From contig OZ219871.1 of NCBI GenBank assembly GCA_964291495.2, positions 288,001 through 352,000 of the forward strand: a stretch of DNA of 64,000 nucleotides, given 5' to 3'. Position 1 is the stretch's first letter. Every line of letters begins with the position of its first letter. The stretch comes from Dehalococcoidia bacterium. GTDB lineage: Bacteria; Chloroflexota; Dehalococcoidia; UBA2979. A program made the translations under genes and the position numbers. The notes below the pieces were generated by a model. It made no database searches, was not told where the DNA came from, and saw nothing but the letters and a program-made list of their open reading frames with translations. This document shows, piece after piece, positions 1 through 17,099 of this stretch.

Positions 1-1245
1 CTCCCATGTCTCTTCCAACGGCAGCAGACGGTAGTACTCGAAGATCGCGGGTTCGCCCGCCAGTGCTGCAAGCCGCTCAATGGCAAGAAACGCGAGCGCG
101 TGCGCTCCAGCGGGCTGATCGCCGGGGTCTTGGCTGACCGTCTCGAGGCTGTGCAGCGGAACCGTGGCGCGCGTTGTCTGGTTCACCTGGCCGCCCCGGG
201 CTACCTCGTAGCCGACACTCCCCGCCACGGGTTGGTAGATGACATCGATGTACATCTCCGTGCCGATCACCAGCCAGTCCGCTCCGCCTGGATCACCGGT
301 CGAGACTCCATGGCCGACCAGCGCTTGCACCTGACGATTCTCCAGCCTGAGCACGTCGTCCGGCCGGGCGCAGCTGGCCAGCACCACGTCCACGTAGTCG
401 TCAGTGAGCCGCGCACAGTTCCGGTACGGTGGCGGCCGCCCGAATACCGCGACGTGGGTCGCCCGCAGCGCCTCCACGTCGGCGCCCACGTAGAGCGGAG
501 TCTCCCTCGGAACGACCCCGAAGCGCTCGGCGAATAACGTCTGGACCCGCTCGTACTCGGCGATGATGCCCCTCTTGATGTGGGCAGGAACCTCGCCGAG
601 GAACACGACCGGCGGATCCGCACCCGGTTGATCCCACTCGACGGCCCTCGCTGCCCGGATCATGAGCGCGTCGCCCCGGCGAAGACCGGGCCCCGTGTCC
701 GCCTGCCCGCTCGAGCGCAGGCTGTGGCGCACGTATTGCTGTCCGGCTGCGTCCCAGCCCCACGCCGCGAGCGCCGCGTCGCCGAGCCCCTGGAGGGCTT
801 CCCTGACCGGCGTGCCGTCGTCTCCTGTCCAGCCGACGAGGTTCAGGCCCGGGTGCAGCCGGAGCTCCGCGCCCTCCAGCGCGATCGGGCGGTCCCACCG
901 GACCGGCGCGTCGCCACCGATCAGCAGCCATAGCCCCATGCCGGCGGTGAGCGTTGGCAACTGCTCGTACTCGCCTCGCCACGCCCGCCGGTAGCGCTCG
1001 TGCTCGGCGTCCCACGCCGAGATCCGCTCCAACTCCGGGAGCTGGTGGAACAGACGCCGGGACGCGGTCTCGGGCCCGACCCAGCCGACCATGTTCCAGC
1101 CGGGCTGCAGCTCCGTCGAGGTACGTGGCAGGACCACCCACGAGGACAAGCCGACAGACCCGGTCGCGCCGGCCGATGCGAGCCCTGCGCACAGCACCAG
1201 CGCAGCGAGGAGAGGAGTGAACCCGAGGTGGACGGGCCGACGCAT
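1..1245 (-). CDS. Secreted protein with two LxPGxNxVGWxG repeats and a degenerate peptidase-MA-like C-terminal region (runs off the left edge)
   Basis: Not in the ORF track because it has no stop in the window. Manual translation from ATG 1245 is open to base 1: MRRPVHLGFTPLLAALVLCAGLASA (signal peptide), ELQPGWNMVGWVG, RLHPGLNLVGWTG, then ADWLVIGTEMY and AFLAIERLAALAGEPAIFEYYRLL. Confidence 0.75.
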   Translation of the reverse strand, partial: MRRPVHLGFTPLLAALVLCAGLASAGATGSVGLSSWVVLPRTSTELQPGWNMVGWVGPETASRRLFHQLPELERISAWDAEHERYRRAWRGEYEQLPTLTAGMGLWLLIGGDAPVRWDRPIALEGAELRLHPGLNLVGWTGDDGTPVREALQGLGDAALAAWGWDAAGQQYVRHSLRSSGQADTGPGLRRGDALMIRAARAVEWDQPGADPPVVFLGEVPAHIKRGIIAEYERVQTLFAERFGVVPRETPLYVGADVEALRATHVAVFGRPPPYRNCARLTDDYVDVVLASCARPDDVLRLENRQVQALVGHGVSTGDPGGADWLVIGTEMYIDVIYQPVAGSVGYEVARGGQVNQTTRATVPLHSLETVSQDPGDQPAGAHALAFLAIERLAALAGEPAIFEYYRLLPLEETWE

Positions 1246-1328
1246 GCTCACCCCCCGTGCAGTGGCTCCACTCACAAGGTACTACGCCAGTTCGACCGGT
1301 CTGGTTCCCTCGGATCTTTCTCACCTCG

Positions 1329-1358
1329 TTGACACTCCGTGGCGGCCAGCCGTAGCCT
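1329..1358 (+). promoter_or_regulatory. Sigma70-type promoter of the trp leader
   Basis: TTGACA (1329-1334), 18-nt spacer, TAGCCT (1353-1358), just upstream of the T-box leader. Confidence 0.6.
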
Positions 1359-1384
1359 CGATCACGGTCGCAAGCGCGAAAGAG

Positions 1385-1707
1385 AGCGACGCGGAACGGG
1401 AGTAGTACGCCGTCACGCGGGGCCCAGAGAGCCGGGGCAAGGTGGAAGCCCGGCGCCCGACAGCAGCGGCGGAATGGACCCGGGAGTCTCGGCCCGAACG
1501 CCCCCAATCGACCCGACGAGGGGCAAGTAGGCGTCGACGGTGTGGGCGCCGTTATCCAGGCCCAGGGCATCGCCGCCACGCCCCGCGTCCGGGGCAGCCG
1601 GGTGGCCGTGCCTTGAATGAGCGCGAGCCGCGGGCCTCGAGGCCTCCGGCGCGCGGAACTTGGGTGGCGCCGCGAGGACCATCGCCCCAGGGCGGTGGTC
1701 CCTTTGT
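1385..1707 (+). promoter_or_regulatory. T-box riboswitch, Trp (UGG) specifier
   Basis: Stem I elements: AGTAGTA (1401), AGAGAGCC, GGTGGAAG and specifier loop GAA-TGG-A (TGG 1475-1477). Also GCAAGTAG, GCCGTTATC (1548-1556) and T-box AACTTGGGTGGCGCCGCG (1657-1674). The antiterminator (TGGG/CCCA, GCGA/TCGC) overlaps a terminator hairpin. It lies upstream of trpE. Confidence 0.9.
1676..1707 (+). terminator. T-box intrinsic terminator
   Basis: GGACCATCGCC-ccag-GGCGGTGGTCC followed by CTTTGT. It is mutually exclusive with the antiterminator; the U-tract is short. Confidence 0.7.
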
Positions 1708-1740
1708 ATCCGGGACAACCCGTGTATCCGGGGCAACCCA
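1705..1740. repeat. 18-bp tandem duplication in the trp leader
   Basis: TGTATCCGGGACAACCCG followed directly by TGTATCCGGGGCAACCCA (16/18 identical). Confidence 0.85.
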
Positions 1741-1768
1741 CGGCTGGAGGAAACGAGGAGGCTTGATC

Positions 1769-1891
1769 GTGCACCGCAGCAGCCCTGCGCCGTACCGCCG
1801 CCAGTCCGCCGCACGCCTCGGCGGCGTCTGGTGGTGGCCGCGCGCCACGGGCTCACGACGCTGCATCGCACGAACAGGACGACGACGATGA
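1769..1891 (+). CDS. Putative Trp-sensing leader peptide (40 aa, WWW)
   Basis: GAGGAGG 7 nt before GTG 1769. Translation MHRSSPAPYRRQSAARLGGVWWWPRATGSRRCIARTGRRR*, with TGG TGG TGG at 1829-1837. Its TGA (1889-1891) overlaps the trpE ATG (1888). Confidence 0.65.
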   Translation: MHRSSPAPYRRQSAARLGGVWWWPRATGSRRCIARTGRRR

Positions 1892-3378
1892 CGACACCGA
1901 CCGCAACCCGCACCATGCCGACCCGCGAGGAGCTGCACCGCCTCGCGGCCGCCGGCGAGGGCAACATCGCGGCGATCTACCGCGAGGTGCGCGCCGACCT
2001 GGAGACGCCTGTCTCCGCCTACCTCAAGATCGCGCGCGGCAAGTACTCCTTCCTCCTCGAGTCCGTCGAGGGCGGCGAGCGCATGGGGCGCTACTCCTAC
2101 ATCGGCACCGAGCCGTACCGGGTGAGCGCCCTCAACCACGAGGACGGCGATCCGCTGAGCGTGATCGAGGACGAGATCGCCGAGTTGCGGCCGGTCGCGG
2201 CGCCAGGGCTGCCGCGCTTCCACGGCGGGGCCGTCGGCTACCTCGGCTACGAGACCGTCGGGCACTTCGAGCGCATCCCGCGCCCGGAGACGGACGCGCT
2301 GGGCGTGCCCGAGTCGTGGCTGATGTTCACCGACACGCTGCTCGTCTTCGACCACGTGCTGCACACCATCAAGGTGATCTCGCACGCCCGCCTCGACGGC
2401 GACGTCGACGCCGCCTACGACGCGGCGGTCGCGAAGATCGAGCGCCTTACGGAGCGCCTCGAGGCGCCGCTCGCCGCGCTGCCCTACGTTCCGCTCGACG
2501 GGCCGACCGGGCAGCCGATCGGGTCCAACTGGGCGCACGAAGACTACCTGCGAGCCGTCGAGCGCACGAAGCAGTACATCGTCGAAGGCGACATCATCCA
2601 GGCGGTGATCGCGCAGCGCTTCTCGCGCGAGACCGGCGTGCACCCCGTGGAGCTGTACCGCTCGCTGCGCGTCGTCAACCCCTCGCCCTACATGTACCTG
2701 CTGCAGTTCGACGACATCGCCATCATCGGCGCCTCGCCGGAGCTGCTGGTGAAGGTCGAGGACGGCGTCGTCGACGTGCACCCGATCGCCGGAACGCGCC
2801 CGCGCAGCGGCTCGCCCGACGAGGACGAGCGGCTGGCCGAGGAGCTGCGCAACGATCCCAAGGAGATCGCCGAGCACGTGATGCTGCTCGACCTCGGGCG
2901 CAACGACGTCGGGCGCGTCTCGAAGTCCGGCTCGGTCGAGGTGACGCAGAGCTTCGACCTCGAGCTCTACTCGCACGTGATGCACCTCGTGAGCCACGTG
3001 CGGGGCGAGCTGCGCGAGGAGATGAGCGGCTACGACGCGCTGCGTTCGGCCTTCCCGGCGGGAACGGTCTCCGGCGCGCCCAAGATCCGCGCGATGGAGA
3101 TCATCGCCGAGCTGGAGCCGGACCAGCGCGGCCCCTACGCGGGGGCCGTCGGCTTCTTCGACCTCTCGGGCAACGTCGAGACCTGCATCACGATTCGCAC
3201 GGTGCTGCTGCGCGACGGCGTCGCCTACGTGCAGGCCGGCGGCGGCATCGTCTACGACTCCGACCCGCAGCGCGAGTTCGAGGAGACGCAGCACAAGGCG
3301 CGCGCGTTGATGGCCGCCATCGACGACGCCGAGGCGCGAGCGGGCGTCAGCACGCCCTCGGGAAGCCTGGGCTACTGA
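1888..3378 (+). CDS. trpE: Anthranilate synthase component I
   Basis: DLETPVSAYLK, FLLESVEGG, NPSPYMY, PIAGTRPR, EHVMLLDLGRND, FPAGTVSGAPK. Start moved to ATG 1888 (alternative 1915). Confidence 0.96.
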   Translation: MTTPTATRTMPTREELHRLAAAGEGNIAAIYREVRADLETPVSAYLKIARGKYSFLLESVEGGERMGRYSYIGTEPYRVSALNHEDGDPLSVIEDEIAELRPVAAPGLPRFHGGAVGYLGYETVGHFERIPRPETDALGVPESWLMFTDTLLVFDHVLHTIKVISHARLDGDVDAAYDAAVAKIERLTERLEAPLAALPYVPLDGPTGQPIGSNWAHEDYLRAVERTKQYIVEGDIIQAVIAQRFSRETGVHPVELYRSLRVVNPSPYMYLLQFDDIAIIGASPELLVKVEDGVVDVHPIAGTRPRSGSPDEDERLAEELRNDPKEIAEHVMLLDLGRNDVGRVSKSGSVEVTQSFDLELYSHVMHLVSHVRGELREEMSGYDALRSAFPAGTVSGAPKIRAMEIIAELEPDQRGPYAGAVGFFDLSGNVETCITIRTVLLRDGVAYVQAGGGIVYDSDPQREFEETQHKARALMAAIDDAEARAGVSTPSGSLGY

Positions 3379-4283
3379 TGGACGCCAAGCCGCTTGTCGC
3401 ATCCGCCGCGCTGCGCCGCAGCGACGGCCGCGTGCTGCTCGTGCGCCACGCCCGCGAGGAGCGCAGCGGCGCGGGCAGCCGCTGGACGCTGCCCTCGGAG
3501 CCCGTCGCCGACGACGAGACGGCCGAGCAGGCGCTGGCGCGGCTGCTGGCCGACCGCCTCCGCCTGGCGCCCGACCGCCGCGAGTTCAACGACTCGCTGG
3601 CGCTGCCGGCCGCGATCGCCAACGTTTTCATCTGCAGCTCCTGGCGCGGCGACCCGCAGTACGCGCCTGCGGACTTCCTCGACGCCGCCTGGGCGCCTCC
3701 CGGCACCGCGCCGGGCATCGACCTCGTCGAGGGTGTGCGTGAGTGGCTGCGCGGCTTGCCCGCAGACGGCGGTGCGCTCCCGAAGAGCGCCAGCGTCGAG
3801 GACCTGACGGCCGAGCTGATCACAGCGCGCGATGCGCTGCGGGCGGCCTACCTGGCGCTCGACGAGCCCTGGCGCGACGTCAGCCTCGATGGCGAGTGGG
3901 CGCCGGTGGACCTGCTGACGCACTGCGCCACGGTCGAGGCCTACTACGCCTCCGAGGCGCGCGAGCTGCTGGAGACGCCCGGCCACACCTGGCGCCCCTT
4001 CAACCCTGCGCAGGGCGAAGCGGAGCGCGCCGGCCGCGCCCGCCCGGCCAGCGATCGCGCCGAAGTCGAGCGCCTCGACGTGCTGCGGGCGGAGACGCTC
4101 GCCTGGATCGAGGAACTCACGCAGGACGAGCTGGACGCCTACGGCGACCACGCCGATCGCGGCGCGGTGCGCGTCGGCGACCGGATCGCGCGCATCGCGG
4201 CCCACGACCGCGCGCACACGCAGCAACTTGCGAAGATGCTTGCCGCCTCGCAGGCGGATCCCGACGACGACGAGGAGGCCTGA
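3378..4283 (+). CDS. Degenerate NUDIX domain fused to a DinB/YfiT-like domain
   Basis: ATG overlaps the trpE stop. The N-terminal GRVLLVRH...WTLPSEPVADDETAEQALARLLADRL is NUDIX-fold-like but lacks the REUXEE glutamates. The C-terminal GEWAPVDLLTHC...AAHDRAHTQQL matches the DinB His triad. Confidence 0.7.
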   Translation: MDAKPLVASAALRRSDGRVLLVRHAREERSGAGSRWTLPSEPVADDETAEQALARLLADRLRLAPDRREFNDSLALPAAIANVFICSSWRGDPQYAPADFLDAAWAPPGTAPGIDLVEGVREWLRGLPADGGALPKSASVEDLTAELITARDALRAAYLALDEPWRDVSLDGEWAPVDLLTHCATVEAYYASEARELLETPGHTWRPFNPAQGEAERAGRARPASDRAEVERLDVLRAETLAWIEELTQDELDAYGDHADRGAVRVGDRIARIAAHDRAHTQQLAKMLAASQADPDDDEEA

Positions 4284-4285
4284 CC

Positions 4286-4369
4286 ATGCTTCTCCTGATC
4301 GATAACGTCCGCGGCCGATCCGTGGCTTACTCCCGCAGCTTGTTTGGAGCGTTCCCATGCTCTTGCTGA
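4286..4369 (+). pseudogene. Duplicated trpG 5' fragment (27-codon ORF starting MLLLIDN)
   Basis: ATGCTTCTCCTGATCGATAAC at 4286 encodes the same first 7 aa as trpG at 4357 (ATGCTCTTGCTGATCGATAAC), then diverges. It is preceded by GAGGAGG. Confidence 0.6.
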
Positions 4370-4950
4370 TCGATAACTACGATTCGTTCACCTACAACCT
4401 CTACCAGTACCTCTCCGAGCTGGGCGCGACTGTCGAGGTCGTGCGCAACGACGAGGCGAGCGTCGAGGACTGCCTGGCGATGGGAGCGGAGCGGATCGTC
4501 GTCTCGCCGGGGCCCTGCACCCCTGCGGAGGCGGGGATCTCGATCGACCTGATCCGGGCGGCGGCCGGACAGGTGCCGCTCCTCGGCGTCTGTCTCGGGC
4601 ACCAGAGCATCGGCGAGGCGTTCGGCGCGCGGGTCGGGCCGGCAGGCGAGATCATGCACGGCAAGATCTCGACGGTGACGCACGACGGCAAGGGCGTCTT
4701 CGAGTCGCTGCCGCAGCCGTTCGAGGCGATTCGCTATCATTCACTCGCGATCGAGCCGGACACGCTGCCCGCCGAGCTGGAGGTCACGGCACGCGCGGAG
4801 AGCGGAGTGATCATGGGCGTCCGCCACCGCACGCTGCCGATCGAAGGCGTTCAGTTCCACCCCGAGTCCATCATGACGACGACCGGCCACGACTTGCTGC
4901 GCAACTTCCTCGCGATGGAGTCGCCGCGCACGGCGGCGGCCCCGGCGTGA
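4357..4950 (+). CDS. trpG: Anthranilate synthase component II (glutamine amidotransferase)
   Basis: IDNYDSFTYNL, SPGPCTP, LGVCLGHQ, RYHSL, GVQFHPES. Confidence 0.96.
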   Translation: MLLLIDNYDSFTYNLYQYLSELGATVEVVRNDEASVEDCLAMGAERIVVSPGPCTPAEAGISIDLIRAAAGQVPLLGVCLGHQSIGEAFGARVGPAGEIMHGKISTVTHDGKGVFESLPQPFEAIRYHSLAIEPDTLPAELEVTARAESGVIMGVRHRTLPIEGVQFHPESIMTTTGHDLLRNFLAMESPRTAAAPA

Positions 4951-4968
4951 GGCGAGAGGCGGCCTGAG

Positions 4969-5349
4969 ATGGGCACCTTCCACCAGCAAATCGAACTCGC
5001 CGCGAGGCCTGAGGGGCCATTCGAGACGCTGGACGCGCTAGTCGACACCGGTGCGACCTACACGCTCGTGCCAGCATCCATCCTGAGAAGGCTCGGAATT
5101 AGGCCGACGGACAGCCTCACATTCATCATCGCCGATGGCAGTCGAATGCAGCAGGAGATTGGCGAAGCCACCGTCCGGCTCGACGGACGCGAGCGCACGA
5201 CTCTCGTTGTGTTTGGCGACGAGGGCGCCACCGTGCTGTTGGGCGCCTACACACTGGAAGCATTCGCGCTAGGAGTCGATCCGCGAAACCGCCAGTTGAT
5301 CCCCGTGGACGGCTACCTCGTGGGGTTGCGACACGGGGGCGGCTCATGA
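4969..5349 (+). CDS. Clan AA (retropepsin-like) aspartic protease
   Basis: ALVDTGATYT catalytic motif, ADG flap-like segment, C-terminal LLGAYTLEAFALGVDP. Confidence 0.85.
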   Translation: MGTFHQQIELAARPEGPFETLDALVDTGATYTLVPASILRRLGIRPTDSLTFIIADGSRMQQEIGEATVRLDGRERTTLVVFGDEGATVLLGAYTLEAFALGVDPRNRQLIPVDGYLVGLRHGGGS

Positions 5350-6371
5350 TCGGCGAGGCGATCGGCGCGCTCGTCGAGGAGGGGCGCGACCTCAGCGAGG
5401 ACGAGGCCGCCGCCGTCATGAACGAGATCATGGAGGCGGAGGCGACGCCCGCGCAGTTCGGCGCCTTCGTCCTCGCGCTGCGCCACAAGGGCGAGACCGT
5501 CGACGAGGTCGTCGGAATGGCGCGGGTGATGCGCGAGCACTCGCTGAGGGCGCACGTCAGCGCCCGCCCGCTGCTCGACACCTGCGGGACCGGCGGCTCC
5601 GGGCTCAACACGTTCAACGCCTCGACGGCGGCCGCGATCGTCGCCGCCTCGGTGGGCGCGAAGGTCGCCAAGCACGGCAACCGCGGGATGACCTCGCAGT
5701 CCGGCTCGGCGGACCTGCTCGAGGCGCTCGGCGCGGAGATCGCGCTCGCACCGGAGCAGGTCGCGAGCTGCATCGAGCGCACCGGCGTCGGCTTCCTCTT
5801 CGCGCAGTCGTTCCATCCCGCGATGCGCTTCGCGGCGCCGCTGCGGCGCGAGATCGGCGTGCGCACCGTCTTCAACATCCTCGGCCCGCTCACCAATCCC
5901 GCCTCGGCCAACTGCCACGTGCTGGGCACGCCCCGCGTCGAGACCGCCGAGCTGCTCGCCGGGGCGCTGGCGCGCCTCGGCGTCCGTCACGCCCTCGTGG
6001 TCTCGAGCGACGAGGGCCTCGACGAGATCTCGGTTTCAGCGCCGACGACGCTGTTCGAGGTGCGCGGCCTGGAGGTCACGCAGCACAGCGTCACGCCGCG
6101 CGACCTCGGCGTCGCGGAGCGCACGCTCGACGAGGTGCGCGGCGGCAGCGCCGAGGAGAACGCGGACGCGCTGCGCGCGGTGCTGCGCGGCGACGGCTCC
6201 GGCTCAGCCGCACTGCGCGACTTCATCGCCGTCAACACCGGCGCGGGGCTCTACGTCTGCGGCCTCGCCGCCTCGATCCAGCAGGGCGCCGAGCAGGCGC
6301 TGACGGCGATCGACGAGGGCGAGGCGGCCGCCCGCCTCGGCGCCTTCGTCGAGGCCACCCGGCGCAGCTGA
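5346..6371 (+). CDS. trpD: Anthranilate phosphoribosyltransferase
   Basis: DTCGTGGSG, TFNAST, AKHGNR, RTVFNILGPLTNP, GLDEIS. Confidence 0.97.
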   Translation: MIGEAIGALVEEGRDLSEDEAAAVMNEIMEAEATPAQFGAFVLALRHKGETVDEVVGMARVMREHSLRAHVSARPLLDTCGTGGSGLNTFNASTAAAIVAASVGAKVAKHGNRGMTSQSGSADLLEALGAEIALAPEQVASCIERTGVGFLFAQSFHPAMRFAAPLRREIGVRTVFNILGPLTNPASANCHVLGTPRVETAELLAGALARLGVRHALVVSSDEGLDEISVSAPTTLFEVRGLEVTQHSVTPRDLGVAERTLDEVRGGSAEENADALRAVLRGDGSGSAALRDFIAVNTGAGLYVCGLAASIQQGAEQALTAIDEGEAAARLGAFVEATRRS

Positions 6372-6375
6372 CGCG

Positions 6376-7263
6376 ATGACGGCGCACCCTTCGGCAACCT
6401 CCGGCGGCCCGCGCGAGACGGGTACCGTGCTGGACCGCATCGTCGCCGACCGGCGGCTGCGGCTTGCCGAAGACCAGCGTGCCGTGCCTCGCGACGCCCT
6501 CGAAGGACTCGCCGCCGCGCAGCCGCCCGCGATCGACTTCGTCACACGGCTGACGGGCGGGCGCGCCGCCTCGCCCGAGGGCGCGCGGCTGCGGCTGATC
6601 GGCGAGATCAAGCGCGCCTCTCCCTCGCGGGGGGTGATCGACGGCGATCTCGACGCCGCGGCGCAGGCGCGCGAGTACGCCGCAGCCGGAGCGTCCGCCG
6701 TCTCCGTGCTGACCGAGCCGAGCTTCTTCCAGGGCGGCATCGCGGACCTCGCAGCCGCCTCGGAGGCGTTCGGCGGCGACACGGACCGGCCGGCGCTGCT
6801 GCGCAAGGACTTTCTCTTCGACCCCTACCAGGTCGTCGAGGCGCGCGCGCACCGCGCGGACGCGCTGTTGCTAATCGCGATGATGCTGCCGCCCCGGGCC
6901 CTCACCGATCTGCTGGCGCTCACGCACGCGCAGGGCATGGAGGCGCTGGTCGAGGTGCACGACGCCGACGAACTCGGCGCCGCCGTCGACGCCGGAGCGC
7001 GCGTGATTGGCGTCAACAACCGCGATCTGCGGACGTTCGACGAGGACCTCGCGACGTTCGAGCGGCTCGCGCCGCTGGCGCCGTCCGGGGTCACGCTCGT
7101 CGCCGAGTCGGCGATCCAGAGCGCCGCCGACGCCGAGCGGATGGCCAAGGCCGGCGCGCACGCGCTGCTCGTCGGCGAGGCGCTGGTGCGCACGGGCGAT
7201 GTCGCCGCCAAGGCGCGCGAGCTGATGCTCGCGCCCGCTCGCAGCGGGGTGGGCGGGCGATGA
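6376..7263 (+). CDS. trpC: Indole-3-glycerol phosphate synthase
   Basis: EIKRASPSRG, SVLTEP, LRKDF, LVEVH, IGVNNRDL, VAES. Confidence 0.96.
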   Translation: MTAHPSATSGGPRETGTVLDRIVADRRLRLAEDQRAVPRDALEGLAAAQPPAIDFVTRLTGGRAASPEGARLRLIGEIKRASPSRGVIDGDLDAAAQAREYAAAGASAVSVLTEPSFFQGGIADLAAASEAFGGDTDRPALLRKDFLFDPYQVVEARAHRADALLLIAMMLPPRALTDLLALTHAQGMEALVEVHDADELGAAVDAGARVIGVNNRDLRTFDEDLATFERLAPLAPSGVTLVAESAIQSAADAERMAKAGAHALLVGEALVRTGDVAAKARELMLAPARSGVGGR

Positions 7264-8006
7264 CGCTCGTCAAGATCTGCGGTAACCGCACACCCGCCGA
7301 CGTACTCAATGCGGCCGAGGCCGGCGCCGACTTCGTGGGGATGATCTTCGCCGAGTCGAAGCGTCAGGTGGGCCTGGGCGAGGCGCAGGCGATGGTGCGG
7401 GCCCTCGGCGATCCGCTCGCCGCGCACGAGATCGCGCTGCCGCCGCCCGCTCGCGGCCACGCGCGGGAAGACGAGCGCGAGTGGTTCCGCCACGGCGCGC
7501 AGGTGATCGAGGCCTACCTCGAGGCGAAACGCCCACTCACCGTCGGCCTCTTCGCCGACCAGCCGATCGAGGAGGTCAACGAGCTGGCGCTCGAGTCCGG
7601 TGTCGATCTGGTGCAACTCTCCGGCGACGAGAGCTGGGAAGACTGCCTGCTCGTCGCCCGGCAGGTGATCCAGGTGGTGCACGTCTCGCCGCTCGACTCG
7701 CCCTCGGACCCGATGAGGTACGTCGAGCCCGGGTTCGCGATCGCGCTCATGCTGGACTCGGCGCACGGCCCTTATCGGGGCGGATCGGGCCGCACATTCG
7801 ACTGGGAGGTCGCGCGCATCGTTTCCGCCGAGCTGCCGATGCTGCTGGCCGGCGGCCTGACGCCCGAGAACGTCGGCGAGGCGATCGAGCGCGTCCGCCC
7901 CTGGGCCGTCGACGTATCGACCGGGACGGAGCGCGACGGGCGCAAGGATCCGGAGCGCGTGCGCGAGTTCATCGAGGCTGTGCGCCGCCAGGACGCCACA
8001 GCCTGA
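7260..8006 (+). CDS. trpF: Phosphoribosylanthranilate isomerase (with ~40-aa internal insertion)
   Basis: VKICG, GADFVGMIFAESKRQV, GGSGRTFDW, LAGGLTPENV, VDVSTGTE. Confidence 0.93.
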   Translation: MTLVKICGNRTPADVLNAAEAGADFVGMIFAESKRQVGLGEAQAMVRALGDPLAAHEIALPPPARGHAREDEREWFRHGAQVIEAYLEAKRPLTVGLFADQPIEEVNELALESGVDLVQLSGDESWEDCLLVARQVIQVVHVSPLDSPSDPMRYVEPGFAIALMLDSAHGPYRGGSGRTFDWEVARIVSAELPMLLAGGLTPENVGEAIERVRPWAVDVSTGTERDGRKDPERVREFIEAVRRQDATA

Positions 8007-8073
8007 CGCCCGCCGGCACTCGGCCGTCGCGCGACGCGGCCAGTGAAGCGGGTGCGGCGGAACTACAAGCCAG

Positions 8074-9267
8074 CTAGAGGCGCAGCAGGCCCCGGATCGA
8101 GAAGCCCGAGGGAATCTCCGGGCGCGCGGTGAACGCAAGGTGTCCGACGTGGTGGTTCTCGGTGCAGCCCGCCAGCGACTGCTCGGCCTGCACGGTAACG
8201 TGCCCGATGCGGTACTTGTCGTGCGCCAGGTCCTGAACGCCGGAGATCAGCTCGTCGATGTCGCCCTCGTACGAAGGGTCGACCAGGACGTGCGCGGTGA
8301 ACGCCTCGTCGTTGGAGGTGATCGTCCAGCAGTGGACGTCGTGGATCAGCTGGACACCCTCGATCTCCTCGATGTCGGCGCAGAGGCTGTAGACGTCGAC
8401 GTGCTCCGGGGTGCCCTCCAGCAGTACGTGGAAGACCCGCGTCACCAGGCCCCACGAGGAGGCGAGAATCAGGATGCCGATGATGATGCTGATGATCGGG
8501 TCGGCGATGACCCAGTCGAACGCCAGCACGAGGACGGCCGCGACGATCACACCGACAGAGCCGAGCAGGTCGGCCAGCACATGCTGGAAGGCGCCCTCGG
8601 CGTTGAGGCTGTGCTCCGCCGAGGCGTGCAGCATGTACGCGGCGATCAGGTTCACGATCAGATCGCCGGTCCCGACGATCAGCACCGGCAACCCGTCGAC
8701 GTGCACCTCCTCGACCGCGAAGCGGTGGTAGGCCTCGAAGAAGATCCAGGCGACGATCAGCCATAGCGCGAAGGCGTTGAGCAGCGCCGCCAGCACCTCC
8801 GTGCGGTAGAAGCCGAAGGTGCGCTCCGCGGACGCCTCGCGCTCGGCGAACCACATCGCGAGCAGCGCGAGGCCGATGGCGGCCGCGTCGGTGGCCATGT
8901 GCCCGGCGTCCGCCAGCAGCGCGAGGCTGCCCGAGGCCAGCCCGCCGATGATCTCGGCCAGCATGTAGCCGGCGATCAGGAACAGGCTGATCGTCAGCCT
9001 GCGACGGCTGAGCCCTCGCAGGTCGTGCGCGTGATCGTGGTGGGCGTGGTCGTGTCCATCGTGGTCGTCGTGGTCGTGGGCATCGTGGTCGTGTTCGTCG
9101 TGGCCGTGTTCGTCGTGGCCGTGTTCGTCGTGGTCGTGGTCGTCGTGGTCGTGGTCGTCGTGGTCGTGCCCGTCGTGGTCATGGTCGTCGTGGTCGTGGG
9201 CGTCGTGGTCGTGGGCGTCGTGGGCGTGCTCGTCGTGGGAGTCCGCTGCTGGCCTCAGCGTCGACAT
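8074..9267 (-). CDS. Cation diffusion facilitator (CzcD/ZitB-like) with long His/Asp-rich N-terminus
   Basis: SLALLADAGHMATD, TFGFYRTEVLAALLN, AFQHVLADLLGS, IHDVHCWTIT. About 75 N-terminal residues of HDHDx repeats. Confidence 0.93.
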   Translation of the reverse strand: MSTLRPAADSHDEHAHDAHDHDAHDHDDHDHDGHDHDDHDHDDHDHDEHGHDEHGHDEHDHDAHDHDDHDGHDHAHHDHAHDLRGLSRRRLTISLFLIAGYMLAEIIGGLASGSLALLADAGHMATDAAAIGLALLAMWFAEREASAERTFGFYRTEVLAALLNAFALWLIVAWIFFEAYHRFAVEEVHVDGLPVLIVGTGDLIVNLIAAYMLHASAEHSLNAEGAFQHVLADLLGSVGVIVAAVLVLAFDWVIADPIISIIIGILILASSWGLVTRVFHVLLEGTPEHVDVYSLCADIEEIEGVQLIHDVHCWTITSNDEAFTAHVLVDPSYEGDIDELISGVQDLAHDKYRIGHVTVQAEQSLAGCTENHHVGHLAFTARPEIPSGFSIRGLLRL

Positions 9268-9407
9268 GGCCGCCGGTTATCCCCCTACGCGCAGAACGCC
9301 CAGAGCCTGAAGGCTACCCCACGGGGCGCGCCTCCAGGCTCGTGCTCTCTCCCGGCAAGTTCGACCGTTGCAGGCAGACGACCCTTGCCGCAACCAATTC
9401 CCGCTTG

Positions 9408-9743
9408 CTAGTGGGAGTGGTGCTCGTGCTCGTCGCACTCGTGCTCGTCGTGCACGTGGGCGTGGTGCTCGTGCTCGTCGCACTCGTGCATGTCGTGCTC
9501 GTGCCCCGGCTCGCCGTGGTGCTCGTGCTCGTCGCACTCGTGCTCGTCGTGCACGTGGGCGTGGTGCTCATGCTCGTCGCACTCGTGCTCGTCGTGCCCG
9601 GCGCCGTGCGCATCGCCGTGGTGGGCGTGATCGTGCGCGTGGTGCTCGTGCTCGTCGCACTCGTGCATGTCGTGCTCGTGCCCCGGCTCGCCGTGATGCT
9701 CGTGCTCGTCGCACTCGTGGACATCGTGGACTACCTGTACCAC
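9408..9743 (-). CDS. Small His/Glu/Cys-rich repeat peptide (6 x HECDEHEHH), putative metal-binding
   Basis: AGGAGG lies 5 nt before GTG 9743 (TTG 9746 is an alternative start). CAC/CAT differences between repeat units are synonymous only in this frame. Same strand as, and directly upstream of, the CDF gene. Confidence 0.75.
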   Translation of the reverse strand: MVQVVHDVHECDEHEHHGEPGHEHDMHECDEHEHHAHDHAHHGDAHGAGHDEHECDEHEHHAHVHDEHECDEHEHHGEPGHEHDMHECDEHEHHAHVHDEHECDEHEHHSH

Positions 9744-9779
9744 CAAATCCTCCTGACCCTAAATCGCTTCTGGCTTGCG

Positions 9780-9809
9780 ATATTAACAGGTCTGGATAAC
9801 TTGAGTCTA
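9780..9809 (-). promoter_or_regulatory. Promoter for the His-rich peptide / CDF genes
   Basis: Minus strand TAGACT (9809-9804), 18-nt spacer, extended TGt-TAATAT (9785-9780). Confidence 0.5.
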
Positions 9810-9836
9810 TGACTCCAACCGAAAACCGCTCGCTAG

Positions 9837-9905
9837 GAGAAGATAAGACTTAGTATCAACTGCAACAAGAAGCCCCGTCCGAGAAGATAAGACTCAGTAT
9901 CAACT
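9837..9905. repeat. 25-bp direct repeat pair (44-bp period), operator-like
   Basis: GAGAAGATAAGACTTAGTATCAACT (9837-9861) and GAGAAGATAAGACTCAGTATCAACT (9881-9905), 24/25 identical, in an AT-rich intergenic stretch. The core is an imperfect palindrome, ATAAGACT-N-AGTATCAA. Confidence 0.85.
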
Positions 9906-10331
9906 ACGATCGTTCCATACGTGTGGCGCGGTTAGTTGTTGGTTCGTCGATTCTTTTCCTGCAGTTAACTGTTAACCTGGTGAGTGCTCCATTGCACAAC
10001 TCAAAACGTGGCCACTTTGTTGCTGGGGGGTTCGCCCGTCTCCAGAGTCGACATGTGACCGGGCACGCACGCCGAGCGCGTCCAGACCCTCGCCTCATGT
10101 CGGGAGCGCCATCGCCGGGCGCCCGGCCCTGGCCGGGCGCCGCCTCACGCGCGCCCGTGAGGCCGATCGGGCCCCGCGGAGGGCGGGCGCGGAGTTCCTC
10201 GCGGCGCCGCGGCAGCCTGCAATTCGGCGAAGCTTTCGTCGCCCACCGATGGTCGGGCCCCACGTATACTCCAACCGGGCTATACTGCGGCCCTGCCACC
10301 AATCGCGAGCGAGGGGTCAGGAGACGGAGTT

Positions 10332-10670
10332 ATGGAAATCAACGCGGAGCGCGACGGCGCGACGGTCATCGCCAGGCCGACGGGGCGCCTTGACGGCTCC
10401 AACGCGGGCGAATTCCAGGAAGCCCTGGAGTCGGCCATCGACGAGAGCGACCGCGCCCTGGTCCTGGACTTCGAGCAGATCTCCTACATCAGCAGCGCCG
10501 GGCTGAGGGTGATCCTGCTGACGGCGAGGAACCTCCAGGGCAACGGCGGCCAGATGGCGCTCTGCTCCCTCGACGCTCCGATCCGCGAGGTATTCGCTAT
10601 CAGCGGCTTCGACACGATCATCCCGATTCACGGCACCCGAGACGAGGCTCTGGCGGCAGTCGGCGGCTAG
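10332..10670 (+). CDS. STAS-domain anti-sigma factor antagonist (RsbV/SpoIIAA-like)
   Basis: GRLDGSNA, LVLDFEQISYISSAGLRVIL (phosphoacceptor Ser), EVFAISGF. Confidence 0.92.
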   Translation: MEINAERDGATVIARPTGRLDGSNAGEFQEALESAIDESDRALVLDFEQISYISSAGLRVILLTARNLQGNGGQMALCSLDAPIREVFAISGFDTIIPIHGTRDEALAAVGG

Positions 10671-10720
10671 TCCGCCGCCGTCGCACTGGAACGCAAGCGC
10701 GCACTCCCCCGAACGATGCG

Positions 10721-11872
10721 ATGACCCACAAGATCCTGGTCGTTGACGACGAGCCCGATCTCGAACCCCTGGTGCTCCAGCGCATGCGCCGCGCCATCCG
10801 GCGCGGCGTCTACGAGTTCGTCTTTGCCCGCAACGGCGTGGAGGCGCTGCAGAAGCTCGACCAGGAAGACGACATCGACATGGTCCTCTCGGACATCAAC
10901 ATGCCCGAGATGGACGGTCTGACCCTGCTGGAGCAGATTCCCACGGTGAATCCGGATATCCGGGCCGTGATCATCTCCGCCTACGGCGACATGCAGAACA
11001 TTCGCACAGCCATGAACCGCGGCGCCTTCGACTTCGTGACCAAGCCGCTGGACTTCGACGACCTGCGGATCACCGTCGACCGCACGCTCCAGCACGTCGA
11101 GGAGTGGCGCGAGGCGCTGAAGAGCCGCGACCGGCTGGTGACGCTGCAGAACGAGCTGGACGTCGCCAGCAAGATGCAGCAATCGATCCTCCCGACATCC
11201 TTCCCCAGCGGACCGAACTACAGGGTCTTCGGGACCATGGAGCCGGCGCGAAACGTGGGCGGCGACTTCTACGACGTGGTTCGCCTGCAGGACGACCAGA
11301 TCGGCCTCGCGATTGCCGACGTGTCCGGGAAGGGCGTGCCCGCCGCGCTGTTCATGATGTCCAGCCGCACCCTGCTCAAAGGCGCGGCGATCGCCTTCCA
11401 CGAACCCGGTGAGGTCCTCTCGGAGGTCAACAACCTGCTGCAGGAGGACGACACGGCCGGCATGTTCGTCACCATGCTGTACGCCACGTACAGCCCCTCC
11501 ACCGGGGTGTTCTCCTACGCGAGCGGGGGCCACGACCCGCCACTCGTGATTCACGCCGACGGCAGCTCCACCCTGCTGCCCCTGACCGGGGGCCTCGCCC
11601 TCGGCGTGGTGCCCGGTATCGAGTACCGGCAGGAGAGCTACACGCTCGCGCCCGGCGACACCGTCATCCTCTATACCGACGGGGTAACCGAAGCCACCAA
11701 CATCGACGACGCGCTGCTCGGCATCGAGGGCGTGCGCGAGCACTTCGGGCCCGGGCACCTGTCTGACGACGCCGAGGAGACCGGCATGGAGGTCATGAGG
11801 GTCGTCCGCGAATTCACCGGCGACGCCCCACAGCACGACGACATCACCTGCCTGACCCTGCGACAGGGGTAG
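10721..11872 (+). CDS. Response regulator-PP2C (SpoIIE/RsbU-like) phosphatase
   Basis: REC domain: ILVVDDE, SDINMPEMDG, FVTKP. PP2C domain: VGGDFYD, ADVSGKG, LYTDGVTE, HDDIT. Confidence 0.93.
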   Translation: MTHKILVVDDEPDLEPLVLQRMRRAIRRGVYEFVFARNGVEALQKLDQEDDIDMVLSDINMPEMDGLTLLEQIPTVNPDIRAVIISAYGDMQNIRTAMNRGAFDFVTKPLDFDDLRITVDRTLQHVEEWREALKSRDRLVTLQNELDVASKMQQSILPTSFPSGPNYRVFGTMEPARNVGGDFYDVVRLQDDQIGLAIADVSGKGVPAALFMMSSRTLLKGAAIAFHEPGEVLSEVNNLLQEDDTAGMFVTMLYATYSPSTGVFSYASGGHDPPLVIHADGSSTLLPLTGGLALGVVPGIEYRQESYTLAPGDTVILYTDGVTEATNIDDALLGIEGVREHFGPGHLSDDAEETGMEVMRVVREFTGDAPQHDDITCLTLRQG

Positions 11873-11876
11873 CGAG

Positions 11877-12296
11877 TTGAGCACGTCATTGCTACTGACC
11901 ATGAAGACCGACCGCGACGAACTGGAGCGGATCGTCGCCGCTATCGAGAACCTCGCGGAAGAGGACGACTGGCCGGCCGACCTGCTCTTCCGGGTCAACC
12001 TCGTGCTCGAAGAACTGAGTCTCAACATCATCGACTACGGGCATGACGACGACACCAGCGACTTCGAGATCGCCTTCATGTCGGAAGAGGACTCACTGAC
12101 CATCGAGATCGTCGACGGCGGACGGGCGTTCGATCCCCTGAACGACGCTCCGGAGCCGGATCTCAGCTCCGGAGTCGCGGAGCGGCGCGTGGGTGGTCTC
12201 GGCGTCCACTTCGTGCGCACGCTGATGGACGACGTGCAGTACGAGCGCTCCGCGGGCAAGAACCGCTTGAAGATGGTCACACGCAAGGTCAGATGA
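11877..12296 (+). CDS. RsbW-like anti-sigma factor / Ser kinase (HATPase)
   Basis: LVLEELSLNIIDYG, IVDGGRAFDP, RRVGGLGVHFVRTLMD. Confidence 0.9.
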   Translation: MSTSLLLTMKTDRDELERIVAAIENLAEEDDWPADLLFRVNLVLEELSLNIIDYGHDDDTSDFEIAFMSEEDSLTIEIVDGGRAFDPLNDAPEPDLSSGVAERRVGGLGVHFVRTLMDDVQYERSAGKNRLKMVTRKVR

Positions 12297-15717: not shown

Positions 15718-15884
15718 TCGCCGAACGCCGCCCGCTCCCGGTCCCGCCCTCGCGGCAGCCCGTGAGGCAGGTCAGCGGTATCATCGAGAGCACCGCGCGC
15801 GCGGCGAAGAGGGTGCGACATGGGCGCGTTCCCGGTACCGATCGAACCGCCGCCCATCGTCGCTGCAGCGACGCAGGCGTCCGC

Positions 15885-17099
15885 ATGACCGCCACCACGG
15901 ACCGTCCCGCCCTCCCCGACGAACGCGGCTACTTCGGCGCCTTCGGCGGTCGCTACGTCCCCGAGACGCTGATGCCCGCCCTCGCCGAGCTGGAGGAGGC
16001 CTACGCCGCCGCCCGCGAGGACGCGACGTTCGGCGAGGAGCTCGACCGGCTGCTGGGCGAGTTCGTCGGCCGGCCCACGCCGATTACGCGCGCCGACCGA
16101 TTGGCACAGCGCATCGCGGGCGGAGGCGCGCCGATCGTCTACCTCAAGCGCGAGGATCTGACCCACACCGGCGCGCACAAGATCAACGCCGCGTTGGCGC
16201 AGGGCCTGCTCGCGCAGCGCATGGGCAAGCCGCGCATCGTCGCCGAGACGGGCGCCGGTCAGCACGGCGTGGCCACCGCCACCGCCTGCGCGTTGCTCGG
16301 CCTCGAATGCGTCGTCTACATGGGCGCGGAGGACGTGCGGCGGCAGGCGCTCAACGTCTTCCGCATGAAGCTGCTGGGCGCCGAGGTGCGCACCGTCGAG
16401 TCCGGCTCGCGCACGCTCAAGGACGCGATCAACGAGGCGATCCGCGACTGGGTCACCAACGTGCGCACCACGCACTACCTGCTCGGCTCGGTCGTCGGAC
16501 CGCACCCCTACCCGCTGTTGGTCCGTAACTTCCAGGCCGTGATCGGCCACGAGGCGCGCACGCAACTGCTCGAGGCCGAAGGACGGCTGCCCACGGTCGC
16601 GCTCGCCTGCGTCGGTGGCGGGTCGAACGCGATCGGGCTGTTCCACGCCTTCGTCGACGACCCGGTGCGGCTGATCGGCGTCGAGGCGGCGGGCGAGGGG
16701 CTGGACGGGCGGCACGCGGCCCCGCTGGCGGCGGGCGAGCCCGGCGTGCTGCACGGCTCACGCTCCTACCTGCTGCAGGACGAGCACGGACAGGTCACCG
16801 AGGCGCACTCGATCTCGGCTGGCCTCGACTACCCCGGCGTTGGGCCGGAGCACTCCTGGCTGAAGGTCAGCGAGCGCGCCGAGTACGTCTCCGTGACCGA
16901 CGAGGAGGCGCTCGCCGCCTTCCGCCTGCTGAGCGAGACCGAGGGCATCATCCCCGCGCTGGAGCCCGCGCACGCGCTCGCCCACCTCGCGAAGCTGCTG
17001 CCCGAGCTGGGCGAGGACGAGTTGGTGCTCGTCAACCTCAGCGGGCGCGGCGACAAGGACATGGGCACGGTCGCCGACGCGCTCGGCGTCACGCTGTAG
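15885..17099 (+). CDS. trpB: Tryptophan synthase beta chain
   Basis: [56 protein letters not shown]. Confidence 0.97.

Follow-up and report, generated by a model that had tools for sequence, protein, structure and literature searches.

The closest described counterpart of the arrangement analysed here is the leader of the rtpA operon of Bacillus subtilis, a precedent that reportedly goes back to Chen and Yanofsky in 2003 and 2004. Its leader ORF, rtpLP, has 10 codons, and the rtpLP stop overlaps the Shine-Dalgarno (SD) sequence. According to the available part of the source, the transcript carries a Trp T-box and the leader peptide RtpLP with three Trp codons, and complete translation of RtpLP prevents translation of RtpA (PMC2311275). 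T-boxes on trp genes have been described elsewhere: a T-box before trpE in Dehalococcoides is already published (PMC2494555), and tandem T-boxes on trp genes are, in the available sections of PMC12452182, reported only in Bacillota. The polycysteine leaderless small ORFs (sORFs) of mycobacteria have a Cys tract that pairs with a downstream SD, and are described, in the available text, as acting with no transcription termination and with polar effects (10.1101/834739). In the trpL leaders of E. coli and Sinorhizobium, as far as the accessible accounts go, a leader ORF with tandem Trp codons lies upstream of trpE and the speed of the ribosome is the signal. Some Actinobacteria also have Trp leader peptides.

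The window, by which is meant the whole stretch of 64,000 nucleotides that was analysed, comes from an uncultured Dehalococcoidia bacterium whose trpE leader carries a T-box and then an upstream ORF (uORF) with Trp codons. We propose, with a probability of roughly two in three, that the trpE operon is under two serial sensors of tRNA-Trp charging on one leader RNA, namely the T-box and then a uORF on which ribosomes would stall. The elements themselves, the way they match the tRNA and the extent to which they are conserved are observed, and from these we infer that stalling raises trpE translation, and by what route. The features of the locus are as follows.

1329..1358, plus strand: promoter-like site, TTGACA at 1329-1334, an 18-nt spacer and TAGCCT at 1353-1358 (read from the sequence; conservation)
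1389..1487, plus strand: T-box stem I with specifier loop, UGG at 1475-1477 and then A (GAA-UGG-A) (RF00230)
1488..1656, plus strand: variable middle of the T-box, where stems II/III would lie (gap between two Rfam matches)
1657..1689, plus strand: T-box sequence and antiterminator, with bulge UGGC at 1665-1668 (RF00230 model 183-216)
1676..1711, plus strand: terminator hairpin at 1676-1701 with T-containing tail, CTTTGTATCC (terminator scan: 11 pairs, 8 G-C)
1755..1761, plus strand: SD of the uORF, GAGGAGG, 7 nt before GTG 1769 (sequence)
1769..1891, plus strand: leader uORF, 40 codons, GTG start, TGA stop at 1889-1891 (sequence; conservation)
1876..1879, plus strand: SD of trpE, AGGA, within the uORF at its 3' end, with 8 nt between it and the ATG (sequence)
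1888..3378, plus strand: trpE, anthranilate synthase component I, 496 aa (Pfam Chorismate_bind 1e-91, Anth_synt_I_N 1.2e-30)
3378..4283, plus strand: NUDIX-DinB_2 fusion gene (GC3 frame test, translation, Pfam DinB_2 4.1e-10, NUDIX 3.2e-7)
4357-4950, plus strand: trpG (Pfam)
4969-5349, plus strand: retropepsin-like ORF (Pfam)
5346-6371, plus strand: trpD (Pfam)
6376-7263, plus strand: trpC (Pfam)
7260-8006, plus strand: trpF (Pfam); the remainder of the operon after the NUDIX-DinB_2 gene spans 4357..8006

Sequence conservation among relatives starts exactly at the promoter-like site at 1329, the DNA upstream of it being unrelated between genomes. A consensus promoter scan reported no sites and missed 1329-1358, so it is conservation only that points to a promoter here. 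The N-terminus of TrpE from ATG 1888 is conserved in close relatives. A 328-aa ORF on the minus strand (3372-4358) seemed at first sight conserved, but the GC3 test marks it as the shadow of the gene on the plus strand; Pfam and NCBIfam gave no match for the wrong frames.

Judged by its defining sequence features and its fit to the genome's tRNA-Trp, the T-box is genuine. A permissive search with RF00230 matched stem I, with the AG bulge, the distal loop motifs and a specifier loop whose codon has a purine behind it, at 1389-1487 (model 7-103, 35.8 bits, E 2.9e-6); the further match at 1657-1689 is weak when taken alone (14.4 bits, E 0.92). The single tRNA-Trp of the genome has the anticodon CCA and a 3' end GCCA, and therefore fits both the UGG specifier and the UGGC bulge, as expected for a UGGN bulge that reads the NCCA end of a tRNA. 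The 5' arm of the terminator overlaps the 3' half of the antiterminator, with 1676-1689 common to both, and the two helices are predicted to be mutually exclusive. The complete Trp-specifier T-box of the original prediction is thus borne out by specifier, bulge and terminator within 1389-1711. The Rfam model recovers it as the two permissive matches, and not at the curated gathering score of 93 bits, at which positions 1-12000 gave no match (best piece 35.8 bits). Scores are low for the other T-boxes of the genome as well (27.8 and 24.4 bits), and those of the clade score 29.7-64 bits, all under the 93-bit cut-off, so that routine annotation would overlook the whole system.

Across 11 sequences of subgroup A and 7 of subgroup B the stem I region hardly varies, and the T-box sequence motif with its UGGC bulge is invariant in the 18 sequences of the genus. 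The middle section (1488-1656) is conserved within the genus, with indels, and amounts to about 170 nt outside the Rfam model. Folding of 1365-1720 gives no stability beyond that of shuffles (z -0.92). The terminator of the window has a weak U-tract. Relatives have a better one, and in subgroup B the helix is the same and the run of T longer. T-box matches precede trpE across the class: 37 of 41 genomes have a T-box match anywhere, and 48 of 60 Chloroflexota loci have one upstream of trpE (Rfam, E<=0.01 in both cases). With contigs from four public RNA runs, 1381-1622 is covered, as are short conserved stretches of trpE; no contig crosses the terminator or the uORF, and the six public RNA runs hold small shares only.

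The uORF downstream of the terminator has three Trp codons among its 40, and these are consecutive (TGG TGG TGG at 1829-1837, codons 21-23). Its TGA overlaps the trpE ATG at 1888-1890. A scan for terminators in 1712-2000 found no second terminator-like site, and within 1200-2000 the terminator of the T-box was the only one. The original prediction had named the GTG at 1769, the GAGGAGG, the three TGG codons and the overlap with trpE, each of which lies where it was placed, and had seen no second terminator after the Trp codons, with which the scan agrees.

The upstream regions of trpE were compared in related genomes with a detection rule for a Trp-cluster uORF that abuts the trpE start. Such a uORF, its stop lying between -4 and +14 nt from that start, is present in 52 of 60 Dehalococcoidia/Chloroflexota loci, which represent species-level genomes and, being related, are not independent samples. 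The 15 trpE loci of the outgroup have none, and of 1200 dinucleotide shuffles 78 (6.5%) pass the rule by chance. Locus L021 was left out as it is broken by a contig end and the stretch looked at falls inside trpE. The clade consists of uncultured, partly sponge-associated Chloroflexota.

The positive loci have 2-5 Trp codons in uORFs of 32-54 codons, with the cluster in the middle of the ORF. All 18 loci of the genus (L001-L018) have the uORF, 14 with WWW and 4 with W-x-W. The offset of the stop relative to the trpE start is -4 (5 loci), +1 (33), +5 (9), +8 (3) or +14 (2), and the stop and start overlap as ATGA or GTGA in 33 of the 52. An SD of 4-6 matching bases precedes nearly all of the uORFs listed for related loci. 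The uORF peptides are unrelated between lineages, which nevertheless keep the Trp cluster, an SD and a stop that overlaps the trpE start. Indels within the uORF keep the frame (3, 12, 15 and 30 nt), with the one exception of 1 nt in L017. The feature is absent in 8 of the 60 loci: for example, L078 is frameshifted after WWW, and L084 keeps a uORF with one Trp codon. The congener L085 has neither the T-box nor the Trp cluster. In other families of the class the T-box lies 34-116 nt before the trpE match, and the uORF insert is missing. The expectation that relatives would share a tandem-TGG uORF whose stop overlaps the trpE start therefore clearly holds, and an arrangement kept in so many species-level genomes is under selection. 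On these comparisons of sequence, we regard the uORF as real and conserved.

The uORF goes with trpE and not with T-boxes in general. Six loci have the order T-box, trpS, Trp-uORF, trpE, which indicates that the uORF belongs to trpE. No uORF was found in the ileS and thrS T-box leaders of the same genome, and no uORF with a Trp pair in the regions upstream of its trpB and trpS. A Trp-free mini-ORF overlapping the trpB start was considered as a sign that coupled uORFs are general here, and was discarded as the N-terminal remnant of a retropepsin-like gene.

On the basis of these observations, we hypothesise the following sequence of events. In the first tier, uncharged tRNA-Trp would bind at two points, its anticodon at the UGG specifier and its GCCA end at the UGGC bulge. 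The antiterminator would thereby be stabilised, and RNA polymerase would continue past the terminator at 1676-1711. In the second tier, with an ample supply of charged tRNA-Trp, ribosomes that start at the strong SD of the uORF would finish on top of the weaker ribosome binding site (RBS) of trpE, and by terminating there would keep independent initiation on trpE low. When charged tRNA-Trp is scarce, ribosomes would stop at the Trp codons, some 55 nt upstream of trpE. The second Trp codon is 50-89 nt before the trpE AUG (mode 55-56; 50 loci), too far away for a ribosome halted there to reach over the trpE site; this site would be left free and, in this subgroup, unpaired. TrpE would then be made, and the downstream operon would be shielded from polarity. 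The product of the two steps may be a steeper and faster response than that of a T-box alone.

A different role for stalling is that of a hairpin switch, as in translational attenuation of the ermC or mycobacterial polycysteine sORF style (10.1101/834739, available text, being the precedent): a fold would pair the trpE RBS, and a ribosome stalled on the Trp codons, with others queued behind it, would break the fold and expose the site. We consider this unlikely. The region of the uORF is predicted to form a long imperfect hairpin with the Trp codons in its 3' arm (-76.5 kcal/mol, z -2.11, 5 of 200 shuffles being as stable). The stem proposed for the Trp codons in the original prediction is therefore present in the minimum-energy fold, but has almost no support from covariation (RNAalifold: 2 of 44 pairs in subgroup A, 0 of 43 in subgroup B, the variation being too low for judgement) and is not supported as a conserved switch, since the pairing partner of the Trp tract differs between the two subgroups.

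Three predictions bear on such a switch across the clade. The predicted accessibility of the trpE RBS is 0.43 for the free leader and 0.43 with a stalled ribosome (21 of 50 loci being higher when stalled), and rises to 0.50 when all upstream sequence is blocked (higher in 34 of 50); position by position from -30 to +35 of trpE, stalling changes it by no more than 0.05, except at -30 to -27. Pairing between the Trp tract and the initiation region of trpE appeared favourable in a first control (-19.4 vs -13.0 kcal/mol, 47 of 52 loci), which proved to be compositional: the duplex with -20..+25 of trpE averages -19.4 kcal/mol against -21.6 for other windows of trpE (median rank 0.70). It falls in the top tenth in 3 of 52 loci, and the probability mass of such pairs is near 0 in most loci. 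Two subgroup B loci are the exception: there the complementarity of the Trp tract to trpE codons 4-7 is unusually high (ranks 0.03 and 0.00). The helix that would join the start region of the uORF to the region upstream of trpE has a median rank of 0.41 and is in the top tenth in 9 of 52 loci. It is enriched in subgroup A only (6 of 10), where the uORF start region is predicted to pair beside the trpE SD, and where blocking the 5' half of the uORF raises the predicted RBS accessibility in 9 of 10 loci (0.58 to 0.76 in L033 and 0.47 to 0.77 in L040; L038 stays as it was, 0.78 to 0.77). These subgroup A pairings and the two subgroup B loci speak for a switch, and the subgroup A results also favour the two-tier proposal, in which the trpE site is left unpaired; stall-operated RNA-switch models have no clade-wide support in the three modelled tests, whose clade-wide figures count against both readings.

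A reading that we think improbable is that the uORF is mainly a coupling device, from which terminating ribosomes restart on trpE, with the Trp codons neutral, structural or damping only. An ATGA overlap of stop and start is the textbook arrangement for positive translational coupling, and complete translation of the uORF might therefore deliver ribosomes to trpE instead of blocking it. All five offsets noted above place the terminating ribosome on the trpE site, and the same geometry would also allow a restart. The ATGA or GTGA overlaps thus fit coupling, as does the weak SD of trpE, which in almost every related locus has 4-5 bases where that of the uORF has 5-6, and as does the next gene, NUDIX-DinB_2, whose ATG overlaps the trpE stop (TGATG) and which is likewise coupled. 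However, Trp clusters are kept, far above the expectation from shuffles, where the leader peptides share nothing else, and none precedes ileS, thrS, trpB or trpS in the genome; the only other coupled mini-ORF seen is the retropepsin-like remnant before trpB. It would also be physiologically senseless to lower the synthesis of TrpE when Trp is scarce.

Stalling might alternatively act on the fate of the RNA, by protecting the transcript from 5'-to-3' decay or by altering the loading of Rho on a C-rich, G-poor tract, and so change the amount of full-length operon mRNA. An excess of C over G is conserved from -40 to +60 of the trpE AUG (skew +0.20 to +0.30, against 0.00 in the gene body; above 0.2 at 0 to +40 in 39 of 52 loci), the uORF has no intrinsic terminator after it, and polarity following translational repression is described, in the accessible text, for the mycobacterial system (10.1101/834739). 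The C-rich tract, however, is downstream of the stall site and is not covered by the stalled ribosome, so that stalling alone predicts more access for Rho and not less, and selection for an unstructured initiation region explains the skew equally well. We give this reading little credence.

That the uORF is a chance, untranslated frame and the T-box the sole regulator of trpE can hardly be right: its frame is open from 1442 in a leader of 70% G+C, where long open frames are common, its codon-position GC (0.68, 0.80, 0.71) has no GC3 peak like the 0.91-0.97 of real genes, and some shuffles pass the detection rule, but their 6.5% and the 0 of 15 outgroups stand against 52 of 60 loci with conserved SD and start codon, frame-keeping indels and a stop fixed at the trpE start, in a uORF that stays beside trpE where trpS separates it from the T-box and that is missing as an insert from other families with a T-box at trpE.

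Returning to the two serial sensors, the T-box and the leader ORF are each textbook devices, and the closest precedent controls a regulator protein in one Bacillus lineage. A T-box and a Trp-codon uORF in series on a biosynthetic trp operon were not described in the literature searched, which included the available parts of PMC2494555, PMC12452182 and PMC3766115; an earlier mention is possible. The added Trp-codon uORF behind the trpE T-box may thus be undescribed, the T-box itself being already in print. The system would be a natural test of what is gained by stacking two sensors for one signal, candidate gains being a steeper response, fast shut-off of existing mRNAs, and separate control of trpE in a trpS-trpE transcript. 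The proposed leader-ORF mechanism is, in addition, apparently independent of RNA structure and free of a terminator, in a high-GC organism.

A wider reading, which we offer tentatively though it seems quite possible, is that of a portable attenuator without an RNA switch. It would consist of an SD-led uORF, a Trp cluster in mid-ORF and a stop on the trpE start, the position of the ribosome deciding whether trpE is initiated, and would be stacked either behind a T-box, giving a two-step and multiplicative read-out, or behind trpS in a T-box operon, where trpE would gain an additional control of its own. This would be an independent invention of a logic not known beyond the anti-TRAP leader of B. 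subtilis, with no earlier case on trp enzymes or outside Bacillota.

How the locus relates to the known systems can be put as follows. Trp T-boxes on trp operons have, as here, a UGG specifier and a terminator that directly controls trpE. The tandem T-boxes are, in the available account, two serial sensors, as proposed here, although the second sensor of the present locus would be an ORF read by the ribosome and not a T-box (PMC12452182). Compared with the trpL attenuators, the putative uORF is likewise enriched in the codons of the regulating amino acid, but there is no terminator/antiterminator or U-tract at or after it; its stop lies at the trpE start and not within alternative hairpins, and a T-box precedes it. 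The polycysteine sORFs share with it, in the text available, the high-GC organism, a uORF of sensor codons directly upstream of a biosynthetic gene, and the lack of a terminator. The uORF differs from them in being SD-led and not leaderless and in being combined with a riboswitch, and its sensor tract is not predicted to pair with the initiation region of the regulated gene, the Trp tract being not specially complementary to that of trpE.

The rtpLP stop lies over the SD, whereas that of the uORF overlaps the start codon, mostly as ATGA; the uORF is also, at 32-54 codons, differently built, with its Trp cluster in mid-ORF and 50-89 nt before the regulated start. The likeness drawn in the original prediction to the rtpA operon is nonetheless apt, since in both a Trp T-box that sets read-through is followed, on the same transcript, by a leader ORF with three Trp codons, and both tiers read, or here in the second tier would read, the charging of tRNA-Trp (PMC2311275 and PMC10327191, available parts). 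The gene regulated here is biosynthetic, TrpE in place of a regulator protein, in a member of the Chloroflexota with no TRAP context. There is no sequence relationship with the rtpA leader, which points to convergence or independent assembly. As the downstream gene is trpE, and not rtpA in a TRAP-regulated system, the locus would work like the rtpA leader and would not be a member of the rtpA locus family.

The window derives from contig C5 of a 3.08-Mb genome of about 70% G+C; MAGs of uncultured Dehalococcoidia/Chloroflexota are its nearest relatives in public records. The leader that separates trpE from a divergent gene upstream is, judged from its sequence, a real and conserved two-sensor arrangement: a Trp T-box followed by a Trp-codon upstream ORF (uORF).

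Features of the leader and trp operon (window coordinates)
1329-1334 / 1353-1358, plus: promoter-like site, TTGACA / 18 nt / TAGCCT, read from the sequence
1389-1711, plus: T-box, from RF00230 matches and the terminator-like hairpin
1389-1487, plus: stem I, specifier loop GAA-UGG-A (RF00230 model 7-103, 35.8 bits, E 2.9e-6)
1657-1689, plus: T-box sequence, bulge UGGC (RF00230 model 183-216, 14.4 bits, E 0.92)
1676-1701, plus: terminator-like hairpin of 11 pairs, 8 G-C, then CTTTGTATCC
1755-1761, plus: uORF SD GAGGAGG, 7 nt before GTG 1769
1769-1891, plus: uORF of 40 codons, from the reading frame
1829-1837, plus: uORF Trp codons TGG TGG TGG (codons 21-23)
1876-1879, plus: trpE SD AGGA, within the uORF
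1889-1891, plus: uORF stop TGA, overlapping trpE ATG 1888-1890
1888 onwards, plus: trpE, from Pfam
3378-4283, plus: NUDIX-DinB_2 fusion gene, 301 aa, from a GC3 frame test; its ATG overlaps the trpE stop
4969-5349, plus: retropepsin-like (gag-asp_proteas) ORF, 126 aa, between trpG and trpD

The order on the plus strand after trpE is NUDIX-DinB_2 gene, trpG, retropepsin-like ORF, trpD, trpC and trpF. The NUDIX-DinB_2 gene thus lies inside the operon, between trpE and trpG, and is masked in ORF listings, its open frame extending back to 2316; relatives carry similar sequence at this place. In a congener, a 62% identical paralogue of the retropepsin-like ORF adjoins trpB with an ATGA overlap (L118 2709-3089, minus strand), and a 22-codon remnant of such a paralogue precedes trpB in the window (15820-15888, plus strand; 7/9 N-terminal residues identical). 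Within the genus, trp genes and small aspartyl-protease-like genes seem to go together. When loci L001-L011 are aligned (TrpE 91-97% identical), similarity sets in abruptly with the -35 hexamer, while 5' of it (window 1247-1328) the DNA differs from genome to genome, so the leader-plus-trpE unit occupies different neighbourhoods.

The original prediction of a complete Trp-specifier T-box holds: stem I carries UGG, the UGGC bulge and terminator follow, and both specifier and bulge are matched by the genome's single tRNA-Trp, whose anticodon is CCA and whose 3' end reads G followed by CCA. The proposed RF00230 search gave a divided answer, with no match at the Rfam curated threshold (window 1-12000) and two with permissive filters, separated by about 170 nt unmatched by the model. 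Predicted folding of 1365-1720 shows no excess stability over shuffled sequence (z -0.92). The terminator-like hairpin and the antiterminator share the latter's 3' half; the helix recurs in relatives, with longer T runs than the window's. We accept 1389-1711 as a Trp T-box of the terminating type, by these features rather than by Rfam score, and as too divergent for routine annotation to catch. For Dehalococcoides, a T-box preceding trpE has been reported before (PMC2494555).

The window's genome (G000) has two further T-boxes, one for an ileS-like gene (L032, C5:1053171-1053468; AUC specifier region, gene starting about 45 nt past the terminator) and one for a thrS-like gene (L112, C6:156744-156855), scoring 27.8 and 24.4 bits. 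All three are far under the Rfam cut-off, so that standard annotation would list none. Across the class, 37/41 genomes have a T-box match at E<=0.01, above the cut-off in 9. Upstream of trpE, 48/60 Chloroflexota loci have an Rfam T-box at E<=0.01 (29.7-64 bits, all <93 bits). The gap from the end of the T-box match to the trpE match is 34-116 nt in seven genomes belonging to other families (G029-G033, G038, G040), as against 199 nt in the window, where the uORF takes up the space.

The uORF was found just as first noted, with GAGGAGG, GTG 1769, three TGG codons and the stop/start overlap all in place. It is kept in 18/18 loci of the genus (L001-L018), as WWW in 14 and as W-R-W or W-C-W in 4, and the leader peptides of the two subgroups, A (which includes the window) and B, are otherwise unrelated to each other. 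Indels within it measure 3, 12, 15 and 30 nt; the exception is L017, where a 1-nt deletion makes the uORF stop 37 nt inside trpE. G006 (L023/L085), the nineteenth congener, lacks both T-box and Trp cluster before trpE; what remains is an ORF of 19 codons with one Trp codon. This joint loss hints that both tiers are kept or dropped together.

Conservation in relatives was scored over 60 Chloroflexota trpE loci, from a collection with one genome per species, as an open frame with >=2 TGG in 6 codons and a stop -12 to +16 nt from a start codon in the trpE frame. A uORF of this kind, the subject of the check proposed originally, was found in 52/60 loci, against 78/1200 dinucleotide shuffles, and in 0/15 outgroup trpE loci (Kiritimatiellae, Fibrobacteria, Alphaproteobacteria, Actinomycetota; four short loci, L098, L100, L103 and L105, excluded). 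The negatives are L043 (T-box adjoins trpE), L078 (the frameshifted L017 genome), L083 and L091 (trpS in between, uORF missing), L084 (uORF with a single Trp codon), L085 (neither T-box nor Trp cluster), and L087 and L088 (AT-rich genomes). Related uORFs are 32-54 codons long and begin with ATG or GTG; they have an SD with 4-6 matching bases and 2-5 Trp codons in mid-ORF, and stop at -4 (5 loci), +1 (33), +5 (9), +8 (3) or +14 (2) from the trpE start. The feature is retained across many unrelated leader peptides, though kin are not independent samples. An Rfam T-box match lies inside 43/52 of the uORF-positive loci; in 4 others the two diagnostic motifs are recognised by pattern alone, and the remaining 5 are trpS-type loci with the 5' end cut off.

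The uORF belongs to trpE. Among the loci examined, eight have trpS between T-box and trpE, and in 6/8 (L042, L052, L054, L057, L058, L092) a Trp-rich uORF directly precedes trpE; L083 and L091 have none. No leader ORF was found at the ileS-like and thrS-like T-boxes, and neither T-box motif nor Trp-pair uORF upstream of trpB (window 15885-17099) or trpS of the window's genome.

Metatranscriptome contigs from four runs (three studies) cover 1381-1622 at 88-99% likeness. None of them spans the terminator or the uORF, a gap that carries no weight either way. They derive from close relatives, mostly in sponge-associated communities, and include one 13-nt deletion variant. Such coverage would be expected of a leader transcript that begins close to the predicted promoter, with DNA carry-over possible.

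The geometry is invariant, with a strong uORF SD, a weaker trpE SD and the uORF stop on the trpE start. From the Trp cluster to the trpE AUG the distance is 50-89 nt (mode 55-56), which would leave room for a 30S subunit to initiate while a ribosome is stalled on the cluster. In Bacillus subtilis rtpLP/rtpA (leader peptide and anti-TRAP), complete leader translation occupies the downstream site and stalling at Trp codons frees it (PMC2311275). By analogy, such a scheme is the simplest model resting solely on the invariant geometry. The first tier would be ordinary T-box antitermination; in the second, finished uORF translation would keep ribosomes sitting on the trpE initiation site, and stalling at the Trp codons would release it.

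We keep as a rival positive translational coupling, in which uORF termination feeds trpE initiation. The stop/start overlap is ATGA, which usually gives positive coupling, and this is the main objection to occlusion of the trpE site. From -40 to +60 of the trpE AUG (window ~1850-1950) most loci are C-rich and G-poor, the C-over-G skew there being +0.20 to +0.30 and exceeding 0.2 in 39/52 loci at 0 to +40; the gene body has a skew of 0.00. This stretch may serve as an initiation region free of structure or as a site of Rho loading, and would let translational control of trpE extend to the operon.

The Trp codons had also been placed in a potential stem. A switch built on it is without clade-wide support, accessibility being unchanged; covariation (2/44 and 0/43 pairs) is too scarce to judge. 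A helix between the uORF start region and a segment 5' of the trpE SD has a clade-wide median rank of 0.41 (top tenth 9/52); in subgroup A it reaches the top tenth in 6/10 loci, which agrees with the RNAalifold consensus and with the higher accessibility obtained on blocking the 5' half. With a ribosome placed as if halted at the second Trp codon, the trpE ribosome-binding site has the same mean unpaired probability, 0.43, as in the free leader (higher in 21/50 loci), with per-position shifts <=0.05 between -24 and +35; blocking all upstream sequence gives 0.50 (higher in 34/50). Pairing of the Trp tract with the trpE initiation region was rejected (median rank 0.70, top tenth 3/52), a seemingly positive first comparison having disappeared under a fair control.

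Of the hybrid T-box and WWW regulator originally envisaged, both elements thus stand as real and conserved, and stem-based control of trpE is unsupported clade-wide. The proposed second-tier mechanism is directly testable. The combination of T-box and Trp-leader ORF is undescribed, for trp biosynthetic operons and for Chloroflexota alike, in the literature searched, of which coverage is partial; a 2025 survey gives tandem T-boxes on trp genes for Bacillota only (PMC12452182). The leader differs from the classical trpL attenuator in that no terminator follows the uORF. In the mycobacterial polycysteine sORF the sensor tract pairs with the initiation region (10.1101/834739), a pairing that the leaders of this clade do not generally show (median rank 0.70). 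The B. subtilis rtpA leader would share the window leader's mode of working, without homology.
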